In this document: positions 11-6,492 of the stretch, piece by piece | Layout of the letters: each line of letters starts with the position of its first letter | Numbering within the stretch: position 1 is the stretch's first letter | Virus record (IMG/VR): IMGVR_UViG_2537561930_000009 | Reading direction: 5' to 3' (one strand) | DNA: 6,492 nucleotides | Source of the DNA: a virus | Lineage: Duplodnaviria; Heunggongvirae; Uroviricota; Caudoviricetes | The notes under the pieces: generated by a model | Databases searched by the model: none | Seen by the model: the letters and a program-made list of their open reading frames with translations, nothing else | Told to the model about the DNA's origin: nothing | Program-made: the position numbers and the translations under genes

Positions 11-116
11 TGTTCTCAGATTGCGGCTTTAATTCTTGATTTGTGTTCTTTATTATGCTTTTGTCATTAACTTGTTTTTATGTTCTTTATTTGTGTTCTT
101 GGGTTGGTAAGGTTGG
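11..116. repeat. Short direct repeats in AT-rich leader: TGTTCT(T/C) at 11-17, 44-50, 81-87 and 94-100, ATTTGTGTTCTT at 39-50 and 89-100, and GGTTGG at 102-107 and 111-116; function unknown (iteron-like or protein-binding sites possible)
   Basis: Read directly from the sequence; no coding frame covers the region. Functional assignment is speculative. Confidence 0.25.
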
Positions 117-289
117 GAGAATTAATAGAGAAAACGTATCTCATTGATGATTTTTATCATGTTTCCCTAGTTTTACATGATTTCCTTTCTTAAAAAAAGA
201 TGATGAATATCAATTAGTTATTATTATATTGTTGTTCGTTTCATGCATTTCGGGAGGAGAACAAAAGATGATTTGGCTTAAATATTCAC

Positions 290-367
290 CTTTGCGTTTT
301 TCGTTTTGCTTTGCCTTTTTCATGCAAATTTGCTAGAAATAAGCAAAGATTTAATTATTAAGCAAAG
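290..367 (+). promoter_or_regulatory. Putative sopA promoter/operator with repeated CTTTGC/GCAAAG hexamers and a 10-bp palindrome
   Basis: CTTTGC at 290-295 and 309-314, GCAAAG at 343-348 and 362-367, perfect palindrome GCAAATTTGC at 324-333. Candidate -35 TTGCTA (330-335) and -10 TAATTA (353-358) with 17-bp spacing. GGAG at 377-380 sits 8 nt before the sopA ATG. In F plasmid, SopA autorepresses via CTTTGC repeats in its own promoter (established knowledge); exact sites here are inferred. Confidence 0.45.
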
Positions 368-388
368 TTACAAGCTGGAGATGACAGT

Positions 389-1555
389 ATGTCTTTGAAA
401 AAGTTATTGCAAGATTGTGTTACGAGAGGTCAAGAAATGACCAAAGCAATTGCTATCGCTCAATTCGGTGATGATAGTCCTGAAGCTCGGCGTATCACCC
501 GCCGATGGGGTATAACTGAAGTAGCAGATTTAATTGGTGTAACTCCTCAAGCAATTAGAGATGCTGAAAAGAGCGGGCGTTTACCTGCACCTGACTTTGA
601 AATGAGAGGAAGAATTGAACGTCGTGCTGGTTATACCATAGATCAAATCAACAGTATGCGAGCAGTTTTTGGCAACCCAAACCAACGACCACAAGATAAA
701 AACCCTGTTGTGCTTGCCGTTATGTCACACAAAGGCGGCGTTTATAAAACATCGTCTGCGGTGCATCAAGCTCAATGGTTAGCATTACAAGGTCATCGTG
801 TTCTTTTGGTTGAAGGTAACGATCCTCAAGGCACGGCCTCTATGTATCACGGTTATGTTCCTGATTTACATATCCATGCCGAGGATACTTTACTGCCATT
901 TTACTTAGGAGAACGCGATAACGCTGAATATGCTATAAAGCCAACATGTTGGCCTGGGCTAGACATTATCCCTAGCTGCCTAGCTTTACATCGTATAGAA
1001 ACAGATCTCATGCAATATCATGCTCAGGGTAAATTGCCTCATCCTCCACACCTTATGCTACGCGCAGCTATTGAATCAGTTTGGGATAACTACGATGTTA
1101 TCGTTATAGATAGTGCTCCGAACCTCGGTACAGGAACCATTAACGTTGTTTGTGCCGCTGACGTTATTGTTGTTGCTACACCTGCAGAATTATTTGATTA
1201 CGCTTCTGTTCTGCAGTTTTTCACAATGCTTCTCGATCTATTGGAAAGCGTTGACCTAGGTGGATTTGAGCCAACCGTTCGCTTACTTCTGACTAAATAT
1301 AGTCTCACTACAGGGAATCAATCACGATGGATGGAAGAACAAATAAGAAATACATGGGGATCAATGGTATTACGTCAGGTTGTACGCGTTACCGATGAAG
1401 TAGGTAAAGGCCAGATAAAAATGAGAACAGTATTTGAACAAGCAGCAAACCAACGTTCAACATTGAATGCATGGAGAAATGCTGTTTCTATATGGGACCC
1501 TGTTTGCCGAGAAATTTTTGATGATCTAATAAAACCTCGCTGGGAGAACGAATAA
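389..1555 (+). CDS. sopA: Plasmid partition ATPase SopA (ParA family, type Ia)
   Basis: 388-aa ORF with deviant Walker A KGGVYKTS and an N-terminal extension typical of autoregulatory type Ia ParA. Long stretches match the remembered F-plasmid SopA (e.g. EMTKAIAIAQF, LLVEGNDPQGTASMYHG, WPGLDIIPSCLALHRIE, VIDSAPNLG, RMRTVFEQA). SD GGAG lies 8 nt upstream. Confidence 0.95.
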   Translation: MSLKKLLQDCVTRGQEMTKAIAIAQFGDDSPEARRITRRWGITEVADLIGVTPQAIRDAEKSGRLPAPDFEMRGRIERRAGYTIDQINSMRAVFGNPNQRPQDKNPVVLAVMSHKGGVYKTSSAVHQAQWLALQGHRVLLVEGNDPQGTASMYHGYVPDLHIHAEDTLLPFYLGERDNAEYAIKPTCWPGLDIIPSCLALHRIETDLMQYHAQGKLPHPPHLMLRAAIESVWDNYDVIVIDSAPNLGTGTINVVCAADVIVVATPAELFDYASVLQFFTMLLDLLESVDLGGFEPTVRLLLTKYSLTTGNQSRWMEEQIRNTWGSMVLRQVVRVTDEVGKGQIKMRTVFEQAANQRSTLNAWRNAVSIWDPVCREIFDDLIKPRWENE

Positions 1556-2520
1556 TGAAACAGCGCTCTCTTCTGAAAAATGCTCCAGATATTAATCGCA
1601 TTATGAGTAATAATCATCATGCCCCTGAACATCAGCCCGTATCACCTATAGTTGGTGATTTAAAACGTCAACTGAGTTCATTAACCGGTAACAGCATAAC
1701 TTTGCCAGTATGCGGACGTAATGTTAACTTTAAGTTAGAGACAATTCCCGCAGATAAAGTTGAAATGGCAACAATGGTATGGCTAGGTAATGAACGCGAT
1801 CAAGATTTATTAAATGAATCCTCTCTAGCCGATTTAATCCCATCTTTTCTAACGTCTGGACAACAAAATCCAGCTTTCGCCAGAAAAGTATCTGGAATCG
1901 TTGAAGTCGCTGACGGCTCACGTAGAAGAAAAGCAGCGATATTAACAGGATGTGACTATCGCGTCTTAATTGGTGATCTCGACGATGAACAGATGCATTG
2001 GTTATCCCAAATTGGTAACGATTATAGGCCTATTAGTGCATACGAAAGAGGAAAGAGATACTTACGCAAGCTAAATGACTTTGATGGTAACGTTAAAGCA
2101 TTAGCCGAGGCTGAAAATATAGATAGAAATATTATCACTCGCTGTATCAATACAGCTGGTCTACCAAAAGATATATTAGCTATCTTCAATCATCCAGGAG
2201 AACTGTCAGCTCGTGCTGGAGATTCTTTGTTTAAGGTTTACAAAAAAAACATGGCTGCCATGAGCAATGCTGCTCATCATCTTCTGGCAATTAAAAAAAA
2301 CGGCGAGGATTTAGAATCTTCACGGATTATACAAATACTATCTGACTCTGTTCTGGTTGGCGACGAGGAAAAAACAAAAGACGAGAAAAAATATGGGGAA
2401 GGGATTACTGCTAGATATAAAGGTAATTTTGTAACTATAAAAATTGATAGCCGAAAAATATCTAAAGAAATACTAAGCAGAATTGAGTTGTTACTAGAGG
2501 AACAATCTACTGATAATTAA
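1555..2520 (+). CDS. sopB: Plasmid partition centromere-binding protein SopB (ParB family)
   Basis: 321-aa ORF whose start overlaps the sopA stop (TAATG, translational coupling). Matches remembered F SopB motifs (ITLPVCGR, WLGNERDQDLL, LIPSFLTSGQQNPAF, VADGSRRRKAA, DDEQM, GNDYRPISAYERG, ITRCINTA, HPGELSAR). Confidence 0.93.
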   Translation: MKQRSLLKNAPDINRIMSNNHHAPEHQPVSPIVGDLKRQLSSLTGNSITLPVCGRNVNFKLETIPADKVEMATMVWLGNERDQDLLNESSLADLIPSFLTSGQQNPAFARKVSGIVEVADGSRRRKAAILTGCDYRVLIGDLDDEQMHWLSQIGNDYRPISAYERGKRYLRKLNDFDGNVKALAEAENIDRNIITRCINTAGLPKDILAIFNHPGELSARAGDSLFKVYKKNMAAMSNAAHHLLAIKKNGEDLESSRIIQILSDSVLVGDEEKTKDEKKYGEGITARYKGNFVTIKIDSRKISKEILSRIELLLEEQSTDN

Positions 2521-2524
2521 GAAG

Positions 2525-2547
2525 TATCCCCTGCATTGCAGGGGATA
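2525..2547. terminator. Perfect palindrome TATCCCCTGCA-T-TGCAGGGGATA between convergent sopB and the invertase; likely bidirectional intrinsic terminator (alternatively a protein-binding site)
   Basis: 11-bp perfect arms read directly; effective stem about 9 bp with a 5-nt loop; flanked by T-containing tracts on both strands (TTGATTTAT on plus). Sits in the 49-bp gap between two convergent stop codons. Confidence 0.4.
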
Positions 2548-2569
2548 TTGATTTATGGTTGTACTCCAG

Positions 2570-3124
2570 TCAATGATTCCCAGCCGGAAACCTGCGGTAA
2601 AGCGTGGATAAAGCAACATCGAAGATAATCGCTATCTGTTTACGTGAAACACCATTCACAATAAGCCTTCCGACCTGTTCCCATTGCTCGGGTGCCAGTT
2701 TTGAGCGGCGCCCCCCTATCCTACCGTTAGCCCTTGCCACCGCTAATCCTGCACGCGTTCTTTCAATAATATTTTCCCGCTCCATCTCTGCGACCGCACT
2801 CAGCATTGTGTAGGCAAAGCGGCCAATTGATGTGCTAATTTTTATTCCTTCTGTAACAGAAATAAATTCAATGTTGTTTGATAAAAAATAGTTAAGCAAT
2901 TCAACAAGATGAATCAGAGAACGCCCCATTCTGTCCAGCTTCCAGACAATAACCGTATCACCCGGTCGTAACGCTTTTATCAGCTTATCCAGTCCTGGTC
3001 GTTTTGACTTCGCGCCAGATATTTTATCTTCAAAAATCCGGTCACATCCTGAACTCCTGAGCGCTTCCAGTTGTAACTCCAAATTCTGGTCAAAAGTTGA
3101 CACTCTCGCATAGCCGTATTGCAT
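2570..3124 (-). CDS. Serine recombinase, DNA invertase of the Gin/Cin/Pin/Hin family
   Basis: 184-aa ORF. N-terminal catalytic motif GYARVSTFDQ with the putative active-site serine at residue 9, then IFEDKISG, VWKLDRMGRS, AEMEREN.IERT, GRIGGRR and a C-terminal HTH (GVSRKQIAIIFDVALSTLYRRF). Lies adjacent to an inverted-repeat-bounded segment. By eye roughly half of residues match remembered Gin/Cin/Pin. Confidence 0.93.
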   Translation of the reverse strand: MQYGYARVSTFDQNLELQLEALRSSGCDRIFEDKISGAKSKRPGLDKLIKALRPGDTVIVWKLDRMGRSLIHLVELLNYFLSNNIEFISVTEGIKISTSIGRFAYTMLSAVAEMERENIIERTRAGLAVARANGRIGGRRSKLAPEQWEQVGRLIVNGVSRKQIAIIFDVALSTLYRRFPAGNH

Positions 3125-3188
3125 ACTTTCTAACCTGCAATTGTTGCTGAAAGCGGGAAAAAATATCGTTCAGACGACACGGAGGCAA

Positions 3189-3214
3189 TTCTCAAAAACC
3201 TCGGTTTACAGGAA
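3189..3214. repeat. Left crossover site (gix/cix-like), TTCTCAAAAACCTCGGTTTACAGGAA, predicted central dinucleotide at 3201-3202
   Basis: Near-identical to the remembered Mu gix site (TTATCCAAAACCTCGGTTTACAGGAA). Its reverse complement recurs at the right window edge; the perfect inverted repeat spans 3194-3222 versus 6464-6492 (29 bp). Confidence 0.85.
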
Positions 3215-4363
3215 ACGGTAAATCAGGCTTCTGGCGCATTACAGAAAAACCAGAACGGCGCAGATATTCCCGATAAAAAACTATTCCTGCGTAATATCGG
3301 CACAACAAATTCAACAACCATGTCTTTTAGTGGTGGTACAGGATGGTTCAGGCTGGCAACTGTAACCATGCCCCAGGCCAGTTCCGTGGTTTACATAAGC
3401 CTGATTGGTGGTGCAGGGTATAACGTTGGCTCCCCGCATCAAGCAGGCATCTCTGAGCTGGTTCTTCGTGCGGGAAATGGGAATCCAAAAGGTCTTACCG
3501 GTGCGTTATGGCGACGGACATCGGTTGGACTTACTAATTTTGCATGGGTGAATACATCCGGTGATACCTATGATGTTTATGTTGAAATAGGTAATTACGC
3601 CACACGTGTTAATATTCAGTGGGATTATACCAGTAACGCCAGCGTAACGATTCATACATCACCATCTTATACAGCGAATAAACCAACAGGCCTGACAGAT
3701 GGAACTGTATATGTAATTTACAGTTCGCACATTAAACCGACTGCTGCTGAGGTTGGGGCGTTGTCATTATCTGGCGGTCAATTGAATGGTGCACTGGGCA
3801 TCGGAACATCCAGTGCTCTTGGCGGTAACTCGATTGTTTTGGGTGATAATGACACCGGATTCAAACAGAATGGTGATGGTATTCTGGATGTTTACGCTAA
3901 TAGTCAGCGAGTATTCCGCTTTAAGAATGATGCAGCTTTTTCTTTAAAAAAATTGCTGATCGGAGATAGTAAAACTTTTTCATTATCAAGTTCAAACACA
4001 TCCACTAAGAACGTAATCTTTAATCTATGGGGTACCTCTACTCGTCCTGTTGTAGCTGAATTAGGTGATGATTCAGGATGGCATTTCTATAGCCAGCGAA
4101 ATACAGATAACTCGGTAATATTTTCTGTTAACGGTCAGATACAGCCCAGCAACTGGGGGAATTTTGATTCACGCTATGTAAAAGATGTTCGCCTGGGTAC
4201 ACGTGTTGTTCAGACTATGCAAAAAGGTGTGATGTATGAAAAATCAGGTCATGTAATTACAGGGCTTGGCATTATTGGCGCTGTTGATGGTGATGACCCA
4301 GCAGTATTCAGACCAATACAAAAATACATCAATGGCACATGGTATAACGTCGCACAGGTGTAA
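3194..4363 (+). CDS. Tail-fibre C-terminal variable region, arm 1 (Sv-like); 5'-partial exon that needs fusion to the constant part by inversion
   Basis: The frame is open from 3134 and runs through the crossover site (encoding KNLGLQETVN) in frame into the 347-aa ORF listed at 3320..4363; a stop at 3131-3133 closes the frame upstream. Ends ...RPIQKYINGTWYNVAQV, resembling remembered side-tail-fibre C-termini. No plausible independent start, consistent with Mu S / P1 S organisation. Confidence 0.85.
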   Translation, partial: KNLGLQETVNQASGALQKNQNGADIPDKKLFLRNIGTTNSTTMSFSGGTGWFRLATVTMPQASSVVYISLIGGAGYNVGSPHQAGISELVLRAGNGNPKGLTGALWRRTSVGLTNFAWVNTSGDTYDVYVEIGNYATRVNIQWDYTSNASVTIHTSPSYTANKPTGLTDGTVYVIYSSHIKPTAAEVGALSLSGGQLNGALGIGTSSALGGNSIVLGDNDTGFKQNGDGILDVYANSQRVFRFKNDAAFSLKKLLIGDSKTFSLSSSNTSTKNVIFNLWGTSTRPVVAELGDDSGWHFYSQRNTDNSVIFSVNGQIQPSNWGNFDSRYVKDVRLGTRVVQTMQKGVMYEKSGHVITGLGIIGAVDGDDPAVFRPIQKYINGTWYNVAQV

Positions 4364-4894
4364 GTGATGCAGCATTTAAAAAACATCAGATCTGGAAATC
4401 CAAAAACAAAAGAACAATATCAGCTAACAAAGAATTTTGATGTTATCTGGTTATGGTCCGAAGACGATAAAAACTGGTATGAGGAAGTGAAAAACTTTCA
4501 ACCAGACACAATAAAGATTGTTTACGATGAAAATAATATTATTGTCGCCATCACCAAAGATGCATCCACGCTTAACCCTGAAGGTTTTAGCGTCGTTGAG
4601 GTTCCCGATATTACAGCCAACCGACGTGCTGATGACTCCGGGAAGTGGATGTTTAAGGATGGAGCTGTGGTTAAACGGATTTATACGGCAGACGAACAGC
4701 AACAACAGGCCGAATCACAAAAGGCCGCATTGCTTTCCGAAGCTGAATCAGTCATCCAGCCGCTGGAACGCGCTGTCAGGCTGAATATGGCAACAGACGA
4801 GGAGCGCACACGACTGGAAGCATGGGAACGCTACAGTGTTCTGGTCAGCCGTGTGGATACGGCAAATCCTGAATGGCCACAAAAGCCTGAATAA
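4364..4894 (+). CDS. Tail-fibre assembly protein (U/Tfa family), arm 1
   Basis: 176-aa ORF immediately after Sv (GTG at 4364, ATG at 4367). Resembles remembered Tfa chaperones ([28 protein letters not shown]...[22 protein letters not shown]). N-terminal and central parts are shared with the U' remnant on the other arm. Confidence 0.9.
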
Positions 4895-4899
4895 AAATT

Positions 4900-4919
4900 A
4901 AGGCCCGATAGCGGGCCTT
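4900..4919. terminator. Bidirectional intrinsic terminator hairpin between convergent U and U' (AAGGCCCG-ATAG-CGGGCCTT)
   Basis: 8-bp GC-rich stem with 4-nt loop; A-run upstream (TTTTT on the minus strand after the hairpin) and GTTTCATT downstream on plus; sits between the two convergent stop codons. Confidence 0.5.
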
Positions 4920-4922
4920 GTT

Positions 4923-5273
4923 TCATTCTGGTTGTTCTGGAAACGTTACTGGCAGGCTGGAGGTGTCTGTAGATTCGACTTTCTGCGCATAGAGCATCCA
5001 CTCGGTTAATTTTTGTTTATTCTCGTCGGAAATGATACCCAGCCGTAGCTGTGAGTCCCATAGCTGTGTTTTATCCCTGACGAGCTGTAGCAGGCTTTGC
5101 TTTTCATTTTCCGCTTGTTGCCTCTGCTCTTCCTCGGTATAAGTTCGCTTTATCACTACGCCATCTTTGAACATCCATTTACCCGAAATATCAGCCCGGC
5201 GATTTGCTGTAATATCAGGAACCTCAACGACACTTTTTCCCTCCGGGCAAATTGCAGTCACATCCTTTTGCAC
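4923..5273 (-). CDS. Tail-fibre assembly protein (U'/Tfa family), arm 2; N-terminally disrupted, probable pseudogene as sequenced
   Basis: 116-aa ORF from GTG, aligning with U residues 61-176. The homologous start (ATGATG at 5457..5452, 3 nt after the Sv' stop) encodes [21 protein letters not shown], then a TAA at 5394..5392. Relative to U there is one extra base near the T-run at 5396-5398, and the downstream frame continues ...TKNSGVVWLWTEDGKNWYEE. Confidence 0.6.
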   Translation of the reverse strand: MQKDVTAICPEGKSVVEVPDITANRRADISGKWMFKDGVVIKRTYTEEEQRQQAENEKQSLLQLVRDKTQLWDSQLRLGIISDENKQKLTEWMLYAQKVESTDTSSLPVTFPEQPE

Positions 5274-5459
5274 GTCGCATATAACATTATTTTCATCATA
5301 TGCAATTTTTATAGTGTCGTCCTGAAAGTTCTTTTGTTCCTCATACCAGTTCTTACCATCTTCGGTCCATAACCAGACGACGCCTGAGTTTTTAGTTTAA
5401 AAGATATTGTTCTTTGGTTTTTGGATTGCCTGGCTTTATGTTTTTTAAATGCATCATAA

Positions 5460-6221
5460 TCAAATACTCGATACGTTATACCATGTGCCATTAATATTTT
5501 TTTGAATTGGTCTGTAATAAACACCACCAATATTATCGGCAGAGTGTGAGCCTGTATCCTGAACAATTATTCCGGTATATGCGCAACCAGATGGAGCCTG
5601 ATGTGTCCATGTTGTGCCATTATTTGCTGGTTTGTATGATGATGCGCCACCAAGTCGGATATCACGTACATAACGGGAGTCAAAATTACCATAATTGCCG
5701 GGAATAATTTGCGAGCCGCAAAGCCAATTCCCGTTATTATCCATGTACGCCTGACCATCGGTGCCATTGTCTGTCCTTGAGTTATTAATCATGTAGATGC
5801 CAAATTGCCTATTCCCCAGTCCACCAATCATAAATTTGCGGTCAGCATGGTCCTGACGTAGCAATGCCTGGGCGCTATCAGTTTTAACTATATTTCTCCC
5901 AAAGATAGCGTTGTTATCGCGCATCTGAATCCACATACCATTACTGCTGTTAATAGCAAAACGGTTTGCAAATATATCCCCTGTAACATCAAGACCATGC
6001 CCCATGCTTATCCGACCAGTTCTAAGATTAAGCGTAAAGGGGCGTAGTGGCCCTATATCACCATTTTCTCCCTCGTTCTCTCGTGTAGGGATGATATGCA
6101 GGCATTCTTCAGAACGGCGAAAAATGGCACCAAAAGATGAATTAAATATCCTCAGTGCATTGACTGTCGATATTTTTACTTCACTGCTAGAAAAGGGCTT
6201 TAACAAGGACAGACAAAGCAT
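5460..6221 (-). CDS. Tail-fibre C-terminal variable region, arm 2 (Sv'-like), C-terminal portion; out of frame with the crossover-site frame
   Basis: 253-aa ORF ending ...YYRPIQKNINGTWYNVSSI and sharing GNFDSRYVRDIRLG with arm 1. Its frame is open only from 6233 and is +1 relative to the frame entering from the right crossover site. Confidence 0.7.
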   Translation of the reverse strand: MLCLSLLKPFSSSEVKISTVNALRIFNSSFGAIFRRSEECLHIIPTRENEGENGDIGPLRPFTLNLRTGRISMGHGLDVTGDIFANRFAINSSNGMWIQMRDNNAIFGRNIVKTDSAQALLRQDHADRKFMIGGLGNRQFGIYMINNSRTDNGTDGQAYMDNNGNWLCGSQIIPGNYGNFDSRYVRDIRLGGASSYKPANNGTTWTHQAPSGCAYTGIIVQDTGSHSADNIGGVYYRPIQKNINGTWYNVSSI

Positions 6222-6492
6222 CCCATTTAAGAGTCATCAGGTCTTTTGTTGTGGTGCTCTGGCGGCTTCTCCATTTGAAATATTCATTGCCGTTGTCGCC
6301 TGTTTCAAACCACATGAATGAATCAGTGTCGCTGTCGGCATTATTTTTAAAACCAATCTTTGCCCAGTCAGTATTTCTAACCCAGGCAAGGATTGAGTCG
6401 TTTTCAAAAGTAAGCCCACCGGACAAGGTATCGCCATTCTTTTGCACGGCGTTCCTGGCCCTGTTTACCGTTTCCTGTAAACCGAGGTTTTT
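6187..6492 (-). CDS. 3' end of the tail-fibre gene as currently joined (constant part beyond the window, reading through the right crossover site); terminates at TAG 6189..6187
   Basis: Minus-strand frame is open from the window edge: KNLGLQETVNRARNAVQKNGDTLSGGLTFENDSILAWVRNTDWAKIGFKNN...FMWFETGDNGNEYFKWRSRQSTTTKDLMTLKWDALSVLVKALF*. These motifs resemble remembered side-tail-fibre proteins. 5'-partial at the window end. Confidence 0.75.
   Translation of the reverse strand, partial: KNLGLQETVNRARNAVQKNGDTLSGGLTFENDSILAWVRNTDWAKIGFKNNADSDTDSFMWFETGDNGNEYFKWRSRQSTTTKDLMTLKWDALSVLVKALF
6472..6492. repeat. Right crossover site (gix/cix-like), TTCCTGTAAACCGAGGTTTTT..., truncated by the window end; predicted central dinucleotide at 6484-6485
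   Basis: Reverse complement of the left site; matches the remembered gix sequence TTCCTGTAAACCGAGGTTTTGGATAA over the visible 21 bp. Confidence 0.85.

Follow-up and report, generated by a model that had tools for sequence, protein, structure and literature searches.

The window analysed here, a stretch of 6,492 bp that is the entire draft contig AQFH01000052.1 (assembly GCA_000356745.2), carries an ordinary DNA-inversion switch of the Mu type that swaps the tip of a tail fibre. A gene for a Gin-family invertase adjoins two convergent cassettes, each consisting of a fibre C-terminal part that is open across a crossover site and a Caudo_TAP chaperone, and one of the two cassettes contains two +1 insertions. 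On balance, we favour as the probable reading a host-range switch of the Mu G-segment type, carried by an N15-like telomere phage-plasmid and with one arm frameshifted twice. All sequence elements that the sequence-only reading had described were confirmed, and the features concerned are listed below in order of position.

2570-3124, minus strand: DNA invertase of 184 amino acids, a Gin/Pin family serine recombinase (Pfam, PHROG and structure matches)
3131-3133, plus strand: TAA closing the Sv frame, 20 codons outside the left site (reading-frame check)
3189-3214: left gix-type site, complete at 26 bp, TTCTCAAAAACC TC GGTTTACAGGAA (a unique 26-mer, 0 expected by chance)
3194-3222: left repeat arm, 29 nt, 100% complementary to the right arm
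3197-4363, plus strand: Sv, intact variable C-terminal fibre part (homology to the arm of Mu-like prophage L009 and to P1 S; PHROG)
4367-4894, plus strand: U, intact tail-fibre assembly chaperone of Sv (Pfam Caudo_TAP, 1.1e-37; PHROG 136, 2e-81, full length)
4899-4920: G+C-rich hairpin between the convergent U and U', terminator-like on both strands
4923-5457, minus strand: U', chaperone gene in which a +1 insertion leads to an early TAA (5394-5392) after only 21 codons
5460-6492, minus strand: Sv', variable fibre part, open in frame from the right site and interrupted by a +1 insertion (extra T at 6189)
6464-6492: right repeat arm, 29 nt, 100% complementary to the left arm
6472-6492: right gix-type site, 21 of 26 nt visible, inside the right repeat arm and cut by the contig end

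Invertase, crossover sites and backbone

The invertase gene, with its ATG at 3124-3122 on the minus strand, matched the Pfam domains Resolvase (2.9e-45) and HTH_7 (1e-13) and the PHROG family 'DNA invertase' (6e-79). Its product aligned over residues 2-181 with the Gin structures 3uj3 and 4m6f (E 1.8e-62), with the catalytic Ser9 in the motif YARVST. Both size and domain content fit the Gin/Cin/Pin/Hin class (∼180-195 amino acids, a resolvase domain with its serine and a C-terminal HTH), and the gene looks intact from its sequence. The 5' 135 nt showed 80% mean column identity to the enhancer-annotated stretch of P1 cin and three invertase genes; this stretch is coding sequence, and its conservation is therefore uninformative on Fis sites.

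A 29-nt match such as that between the repeat arms is expected by chance about 1e-10 times in 6.5 kb (our own arithmetic). The crossover dinucleotides lie at 3201-3202 and 6484-6485 with a TC/GA centre at both sites, and the core AAACCNNGGTTT is present only twice within the window (3196-3207 and 6479-6490). Two inverted sites with identical central dinucleotides are as expected for an inversion switch of the Gin/Cin/Pin/Hin type. Compared with TTATCCAAAACCTCGGTTTACAGGAA of the Mu-like prophages L005 and L009, the left site is identical at 24 of 26 positions, with both differences in the outer half. Assignment to the cix type of P1 was rejected and that to the gix (Mu) type preferred, since cix, unlike the window, combines a TT centre with the inner half GGTTTAAGAGAA. 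A multi-site system of the Min or shufflon kind was likewise rejected, since only the two terminal sites were found (26-mer with at most three mismatches; AAACCNNGGTTT with at most one). The right site is truncated, as the sequence-only reading had stated, with 21 of its 26 nt visible; the truncation, however, is no arbitrary cut, as position 6492 is the end of the draft contig.

By its sopAB genes, the backbone is that of an N15-like telomere phage-plasmid, whose protelomerase, telomere site and lambda-like head and tail genes would lie outside the window. SopA and SopB are homologous to the products of N15 genes 28 and 27 and matched a ParA-type ATPase and SoPB_HTH in Pfam, and the DNA of sopAB was 73% identical to N15 genes 27-28 and 89% identical to phage PhiR46_1. 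The single close backbone relative, pZ1323HEC0355-3 (97.8% over window positions 25-3197), has a protelomerase gene adjoining sopA, together with L, K, I, J, lom and a Stf of 945 amino acids with a lambda-Stf-like N-terminus. The combination of a Gin-type fibre switch with an N15-like backbone (sopAB, protelomerase-type) is rare, the junction of sopB with the invertase gene being found in only one of 5,426 complete E. coli genomes. RepA-type P2-like phage-plasmids have an invertase cassette 92% identical to that of the window, as if a module had been exchanged between two families of phage-plasmids.

No record in the phage, plasmid and complete E. coli collections spanned at least 80% of the region, and exact-protein matching with Sv and the 253-aa fragment of Sv' recovered only AQFH01000052.1 itself. 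Literature searches found no paper on accession AQFH00000000 and none joining protelomerase, DNA invertase and tail fiber; inversion goes unmentioned in one telomere-phage survey.

The intact and the frameshifted arm

Sv is collinear and gap-free with the corresponding arm of L009 (92% amino-acid identity), and matches PHROG tail fiber families; its C-terminal end resembles S of Mu and P1 and is homologous to P1 S. The frame that crosses the left site into Sv holds no ATG, GTG or TTG before 3320, and it is closed upstream by the TAA at 3131-3133. Because of this stop, the absent start codon and the directly adjoining invertase gene, no constant part lies to the left of the segment, in agreement with the sequence-only reading. 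No promoter-like site was found on the plus strand between 2500 and 6492. The earlier proposal that the intact Sv-U arm is silent as assembled thus stood, as the arm has neither a start codon nor a promoter-like site upstream and as relatives keep the constant part away from the invertase.

On the minus strand, the frame starting at 6492 reads KNLGLQETVN... and, as had been proposed, is open through the right site to the window edge, ending after 101 codons with a TAG (6189-6187). These 101 amino acids matched the Pfam family Gp34_trimer. Alignment with three intact relatives (L004, L005 and L006) identified an extra T at 6189 on the minus strand, and alignment of U' with two intact relatives (L007 and L008, 97-99% identical) identified an AA>AAA insertion at 5396-5398, again on the minus strand. 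Deletion of one base at each insertion yields a full-length Sv' of 343 amino acids, 86% identical to an intact fibre C-terminal part, and a full-length U' of 177 amino acids, of which 174 are identical to Tfa of pTD225C4_47. Programmed +1 frameshifting at either insertion was rejected from the sequence; at CTT TTC TAG there was no tRNA-Phe slippery match and no upstream Shine-Dalgarno-like stimulator.

The extra T at 6189 was absent from all 428 E. coli records holding the Sv' stretch (the best match, at 99.1%, aligned 110 record bases with 111 query bases, a one-nucleotide gap), and the AA>AAA change was absent from all seven holding the U' stretch. Since the complete E. coli genomes searched all lack both insertions, each is, judged from these alignments, either a private mutation or a consensus error. 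It is accordingly doubtful that the Sv'-U' arm deserves the label 'defective' given to it by the sequence-only reading, since two private one-nucleotide insertions could be errors of the consensus.

If both were such errors, the two arms would be truly intact and the element a fully functional two-state host-range switch. Besides the absence of both insertions from the 428 and seven homologous stretches, this is favoured by the lack of further decay in the arm (the repaired U' and Sv' described above) and by a T4 run of the minus strand that immediately adjoins each insertion. The T at 6189, however, extends no homopolymer (its context is C-T-A), and the remaining ∼4.2 kb of coding sequence is without a frameshift despite longer homopolymers. 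Furthermore, sopA, sopB and the invertase gene together showed one gap in 3,174 nt against the 97.8% identical relative, which argues against a consensus that is generally indel-ridden, and similar frameshifted arms occur in finished genomes and other assemblies (L005; P0002, P0011). By our own arithmetic, two events among ∼5.8 kb of coding sequence would by chance both fall in this 1.57-kb arm with a probability of ∼0.07; such clustering is suggestive, short of decisive. We regard two intact arms as rather unlikely, yet deserving of weight.

The two inactivating mutations within 1.6 kb could also mark the whole element as a decaying, non-inducible plasmid prophage, in which a fossil switch had collected random frameshifts and the state of the arms would have no functional consequence. 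E. coli prophages commonly contain pseudogenised fibre arms and invertases, examples being the frameshifted recombinase of L009 and the split fibre and frameshifted baseplate gene of L005. Against this, sopA, sopB, the invertase gene, Sv and U are all intact within the 6.5-kb window of the element, and we consider such general decay improbable.

The constant fibre part and the assembled orientation

The eight relatives fetched, which are N15-like, P2-like, Mu-like or P1-like, all have the constant part at the end of the segment opposite the invertase; the arm on the invertase side, where annotated, is marked 'missing N-terminus'. The LGLQETVN frame crosses the site in the seven relatives with gix-type sites; P1 has its own cix sites. 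Both arms of the window carry the common frame ..NLGLQETVN.. over the crossover, and inversion would therefore fuse either arm in frame. By analogy with these relatives, we infer a constant part beyond 6492 on the minus strand, which is not visible because the contig ends there, on the last base of the right repeat arm. The earlier claim that the constant part is joined to the frameshifted arm is borne out in its topology, which matches eight of eight relatives, but the 'orientation as sequenced' on which it relied is one assembler path.

An N-terminal baseplate-attachment domain, which had been expected of the constant part, is probably wrong: the sole close backbone relative has a lambda Stf-type side fibre and a lambda-like tail, and the constant part is by analogy probably of the lambda Stf type. 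A protein search with the 101-aa N-terminal fragment of Sv' returned only 16 short partial proteins. The last 154 amino acids of the constant part of pZ1323HEC0355-3 had 725 protein matches, and 'KN' before LGLQETVN was found in none of the best 120 of the 725 (all short, mostly partial, sub-kb contigs).

The contig end itself bears on the orientation. In its outer half, the right site shows seven bases, AAAAACC, which equal the invertase-side half-site and differ from GAATACC, the constant-part-side half-site in four phage-plasmid relatives; the terminal 68-mer of the contig occurs in complete genomes at invertase-side junctions only. Since contig and repeat end on the same base and the outer half is that of the invertase-side half-site, there may have been mixed orientations or a fold-back at assembly. 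The orientation of the contig could then be biologically uninformative, either because the culture contained both orientations or because of ambiguity in the assembly graph at the repeat. The assembler would have threaded one junction and halted at the other, and the join of constant part and frameshifted arm would represent a subset of molecules. That the window is a complete contig ending on the last repeat base, that its end carries invertase-side sequence, that none of 135 fetched fibre proteins had a constant part ending in KN before LGLQ, and that the invertase looks intact are all in keeping with this account. On the other hand, the assembly passes through the left junction (invertase flank, site, intact Sv), and reads that contain it must therefore exist. 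With a GAATACC half-site a strict branch stop would, moreover, be expected at 6488 rather than at 6492 as found, and a break at 6492 better fits a constant-part flank that matches the invertase flank to that base. Taken together, an uninformative orientation is quite possible, if a little short of probable.

In the favoured reading of a Mu-type host-range switch, the invertase would recombine the two inverted 26-bp sites at their central TC and thereby flip a segment of ∼3.3 kb that holds the convergent Sv-U and Sv'-U' with the hairpin between them, terminator-like on either strand. The constant N-terminal part past the contig end would read on the minus strand via ..LGLQETVN.. into whichever arm faces it. 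On the assembler's path, Sv-U would face the invertase and be silent, while the constant part would face Sv' (101 codons) and U' (21 codons). Both the occurrence of inversion and a biological origin of the insertions are inferred here; if the insertions are real, virions of the assembled state would be without a functional side fibre and inversion would restore one. The host-range toggle would thereby be an on/off toggle for an accessory fibre.

A reversible on/off switch of an accessory side fibre on a telomere phage, or else a fibre product made by the lysogen that interferes with the adsorption of other phages, is in our view very improbable as the function of the element. One state would give a stub (the constant part plus 101 amino acids) and no chaperone, the other a complete fibre; in the lysogen variant, a truncated or alternative fibre product would interfere with adsorption by analogy with PinQ and StfE2 (PMC12529663).

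Relation to known inversion systems

The closest likeness is to the G segment of Mu and its invertase Gin. The inner half GGTTTACAGGAA, the central TC and the 24 of 26 nt shared with the site of Mu-like prophages are of this type; the segment likewise holds two convergent Sv-U cassettes, and the invertase gene begins beside a site and, like gin, points away from the segment. In contrast to Mu, a transposable myovirus, the window has an N15-like sopAB plasmid-prophage backbone, a constant part that by analogy with pZ1323HEC0355-3 is probably of the lambda Stf type, and one arm that is twice frameshifted. The arms themselves are mosaics of sequences from P2-like, Mu-like and P1-like elements.

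The C segment of P1 also combines a constant part and two alternative Sv/U cassettes with a serine invertase, Cin, and the U/U' and Sv C-terminal regions of P1 and the window are 87% identical in DNA. However, cin of P1 is directed towards the segment, overlapping cixL with its 3' end, and the C segment measures 4.2 kb compared with ∼3.3 kb here. The p15B Min system and the shufflons also use a serine invertase to rearrange the C-terminal parts of fibres or pili, but with at least six crossover sites, whereas the window has two.

In the e14 P segment with Pin, and with PinQ, both of E. coli K-12 cryptic prophages, an invertible stf-type segment similarly has partly defective fibre genes, and invertases of this family are able to act in trans. 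Inversion in the PinQ system creates a chimeric StfE2 that blocks T2 adsorption (PMC12529663). The backbone here is, in contrast, that of a plasmid-prophage, and expression of the arms in the lysogen or a role for them in defence is without support.

Side-fibre loss of the kind expected here has a precedent in lambda PaPa, in which a single-base frameshift in stf, reportedly described by Hendrix and Duda in 1992, removes the side tail fibre and the phage survives. A similar loss is a likely consequence in the present element if its constant part is Stf-like; unlike the fixed defect of lambda PaPa, it could be undone by inversion to the intact arm.

The importance of the element beyond annotation is small. 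In draft assemblies, fibre-arm 'pseudogenes' and calls of orientation need care, and where a contig ends precisely on an inversion site, the cause may be a culture with both orientations instead of one fixed state. Real frameshifts would make the element a natural example of inversion rescuing a broken accessory fibre.

Layout, sites and enzyme of the switch

Exact-protein look-ups identified the window as the whole of contig AQFH01000052.1 from draft assembly GCA_000356745.2, so that base 6492 is the end of a contig and not an arbitrary cut. The contig has a stated occurrence in three samples. The features are as follows:

Features of contig AQFH01000052.1
389-1555, plus strand: sopA/parA
1555-2520, plus strand: sopB/parB
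2523-2549: hairpin, distal to sopB
2570-3124, minus strand: serine invertase, 184 aa
3197-4363, plus strand: Sv, fibre part of the intact plus arm, aligning gap-free to a Mu-like prophage arm
4367-4894, plus strand: U, full-length Caudo_TAP chaperone
4899-4920: G+C-rich hairpin between the convergent cassettes, terminator-like on both strands

Positions 3194-3222 and 6464-6492 form a perfect 29-bp inverted repeat. The left site inside it (3189-3214) is a 26-bp element of 12-2-12 structure, TTCTCAAAAACC TC GGTTTACAGGAA, and the right mirror site (6472-6492) is cut short by the contig end, with its final five bases missing. The site in the Mu-like prophages fetched, TTATCCAAAACC TC GGTTTACAGGAA, equals the window site at 24 of 26 nucleotides, and by sequence comparison the window sites are assigned to the Mu gix type; P1 cix, in contrast, is centred on TT and differs in its inner half. 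Neither the site nor its core has a third copy in the 6492-base window, which excludes a multi-site Min or shufflon system. Residues 2-181 of the invertase align with Gin (PDB 3uj3/4m6f, E 1.8e-62), with the catalytic serine kept. As in Mu, the gene begins beside the site and is transcribed away from the segment, whereas P1 cin points towards it. When the coding sequence was aligned with cin, the 5′ part (where a Fis enhancer would be expected) was conserved at the coding level only. Two-cassette anatomy, sites and enzyme match the defining Gin/Pin-type features within reach of the window sequence, and the region is predicted to be a standard Gin/Pin-type invertible tail-fibre segment.

Both arms (3189-4919 and 4923-6492) are mosaic, as is typical of fibre-module shuffling. 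The expressed arm of strain C311 plasmid p2 matches 3189-3902 at 93% identity, and the fibre of a P1-like plasmid matches 3311-3744 at 91%. P2-like phage-plasmids match 4305-5681 at 92-93%, and still different arms match 5650-6492 at 89-92%.

The constant part and the orientation as sequenced

The sequence-only reading had placed the constant part beyond 6492, citing a stop and an adjacent invertase on the left, and both were borne out: a TAA at 3131-3133 closes the frame running through the left site into Sv, and the ATG of the invertase lies at 3124. Upstream of 3320 this frame lacks any start codon. As had been claimed, the plus arm is intact, with Sv collinear with a Mu-like prophage arm (92% amino-acid identity, zero gaps) and similar to P1 S at its end, followed by the complete chaperone. 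The invertase-side flank (3134-3193) stays open in phase with Sv (PAIVAESGKKYRSDDTEAIL followed by KNLGLQETVN), and both the N15-like relative and the three P2-like phage-plasmids conserve it (..SGKKYRSDDTEAIRKNLGLQ). It may be the remnant of an ancestral constant part's end, or just the promoter/leader region of the invertase.

The order constant part, invertible segment, invertase is common to all eight relatives fetched, namely P1, a P1-like plasmid, an N15-like plasmid, two Mu-like prophages and three P2-like phage-plasmids; their annotated invertase-side arms are labelled 'missing N-terminus'. The frame across the site (..LGLQETVN..) is the same in both window arms and in all seven relatives with gix-type sites. 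By this topology, the intact arm beside the invertase would be the silent one and the contig-end arm would face the constant part. The minus-strand frame is indeed open to the edge, starting at 6492 and reading KNLGLQETVNRARNAVQKNGDTLSGG... for 101 codons.

The contig breaks off at the final base of the 29-bp repeat, an assembly break induced by the repeat or by inversion. Of the right site's outer half, seven bases can be seen; they read AAAAACC, as in the invertase-side half-site, whereas all four phage-plasmid relatives have GAATACC in the half-site on the constant-part side. Across 5,426 complete genomes the contig-terminal 68-mer has just three occurrences, all of them at invertase-side junctions. 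Either the constant-part flank is by coincidence identical to the invertase flank as far as base 6492, with assembly halting where the two diverge, or the last bases derive from molecules in the flipped orientation; under both readings the inversion system causes the break, and the contig is one path through it. The claim that the constant part is joined to the defective arm thus agrees with the topology of the eight relatives, but the contig displays only a single assembly path.

A baseplate-attachment N-terminus had been expected. The relative pZ1323HEC0355-3 carries a 945-aa fibre, named in its record a 'prophage tail fiber N-terminal domain' protein, whose constant part ends ...AAVIEY before LGLQETVN and whose N-terminus we take to resemble lambda Stf. 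Given this Stf-like fibre and the lambda-like L, K, I, J and lom genes of the same relative, the constant part most likely belongs to a siphovirus side tail fibre rather than a baseplate fibre. None of the fibre proteins fetched had a constant part ending in KN before LGLQ. The 3′ end of the constant part forms separate sub-kb contigs in many draft genomes (proteins P0017-P0135; contigs of ∼450-790 nt, single protein clusters standing for up to 285 sequences), which shows the region to be a repeat that breaks Enterobacteriaceae draft assemblies time and again.

Two insertions in the minus arm

Compared with three relatives, Sv′ carries an additional minus-strand T at 6189, turning ...CTT TTC AGC AGT... 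into ...CTT TTC TAG, and U′ has AAA for AA at 5396-5398 compared with two relatives 97-99% identical, which brings in a TAA 21 codons into the gene. When a single base is removed at each insertion, both full-length frames return: a 343-aa Sv′ with 86% identity to an intact fibre's C-terminal part, and a 177-aa U′ that is 174/177 identical to an intact chaperone. The extra T was absent from all 428 complete-E. coli-genome records containing the surrounding 111-nt stretch, and the extra A near 5397 from all seven containing that stretch; the defects are therefore either private to the contig and very young, or consensus errors of the draft. A generally poor consensus is argued against by the single gap in 3174 nt of sopA-sopB-invertase relative to a 97.8% identical relative, and by every other gene in the window being open. 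Yet each insertion adjoins a minus-strand T4 run, and the chance probability of two events both falling in the 1.57-kb arm is only ∼0.07, which counsels caution. The minus arm is thus defective as sequenced, with two +1 insertions and early stops, but these may be consensus errors.

Frameshifted arms are common in prophage fibre segments of this kind, and other assemblies carry such versions of this arm type. In the Mu-like prophage of E. coli elppa5 (L005, ∼6118-6205) the fibre loses its reading frame immediately inside the site, with an A8 run where relatives have AAAAGAA and two CDSs annotated; two other fibre sequences (P0002 and P0011) lose the frame further in. Since lambda can do without its side fibres (the PaPa stf frameshift), a broken arm would not necessarily be lethal.

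Backbone and possible module exchange

The sopAB genes share 73% identity with N15 genes 27-28 and 89% with those of phage PhiR46_1. Upstream of sopA lie two 18-bp direct repeats 50 bp apart (33-50 and 83-100; TTCTTGATTTGTGTTCTT / TTCTTTATTTGTGTTCTT) and a 24-bp imperfect palindrome (309-348), which may be partition operator or centromere-like sites.

Inversion of the e14 fibre segment is reported to yield a protein active against T2 (PMC12529663). By analogy there is a small chance of a lysogen-level function here; nothing in the window points to one.

The only close relative with the sopB-invertase junction is pZ1323HEC0355-3, in which a protelomerase adjoins sopA; it is 97.8% identical over window 25-3197, and homology stops at the left site. 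The junction occurs in one of 5,426 complete E. coli genomes. Homology to many sopAB-type N15-like plasmids ends at ∼2565, just past the sopB-distal hairpin, and most sopAB relatives have a fibre-assembly gene in place of the invertase cassette. From 2563, the invertase cassette and flank are ∼92% identical to RepA-type P2-like phage-plasmids (∼48 kb; an example is found in ATCC 25922). The backbone is the only mildly unusual aspect of this switch, and from these junctions the invertase-plus-fibre cassette looks to have been exchanged between two phage-plasmid families.
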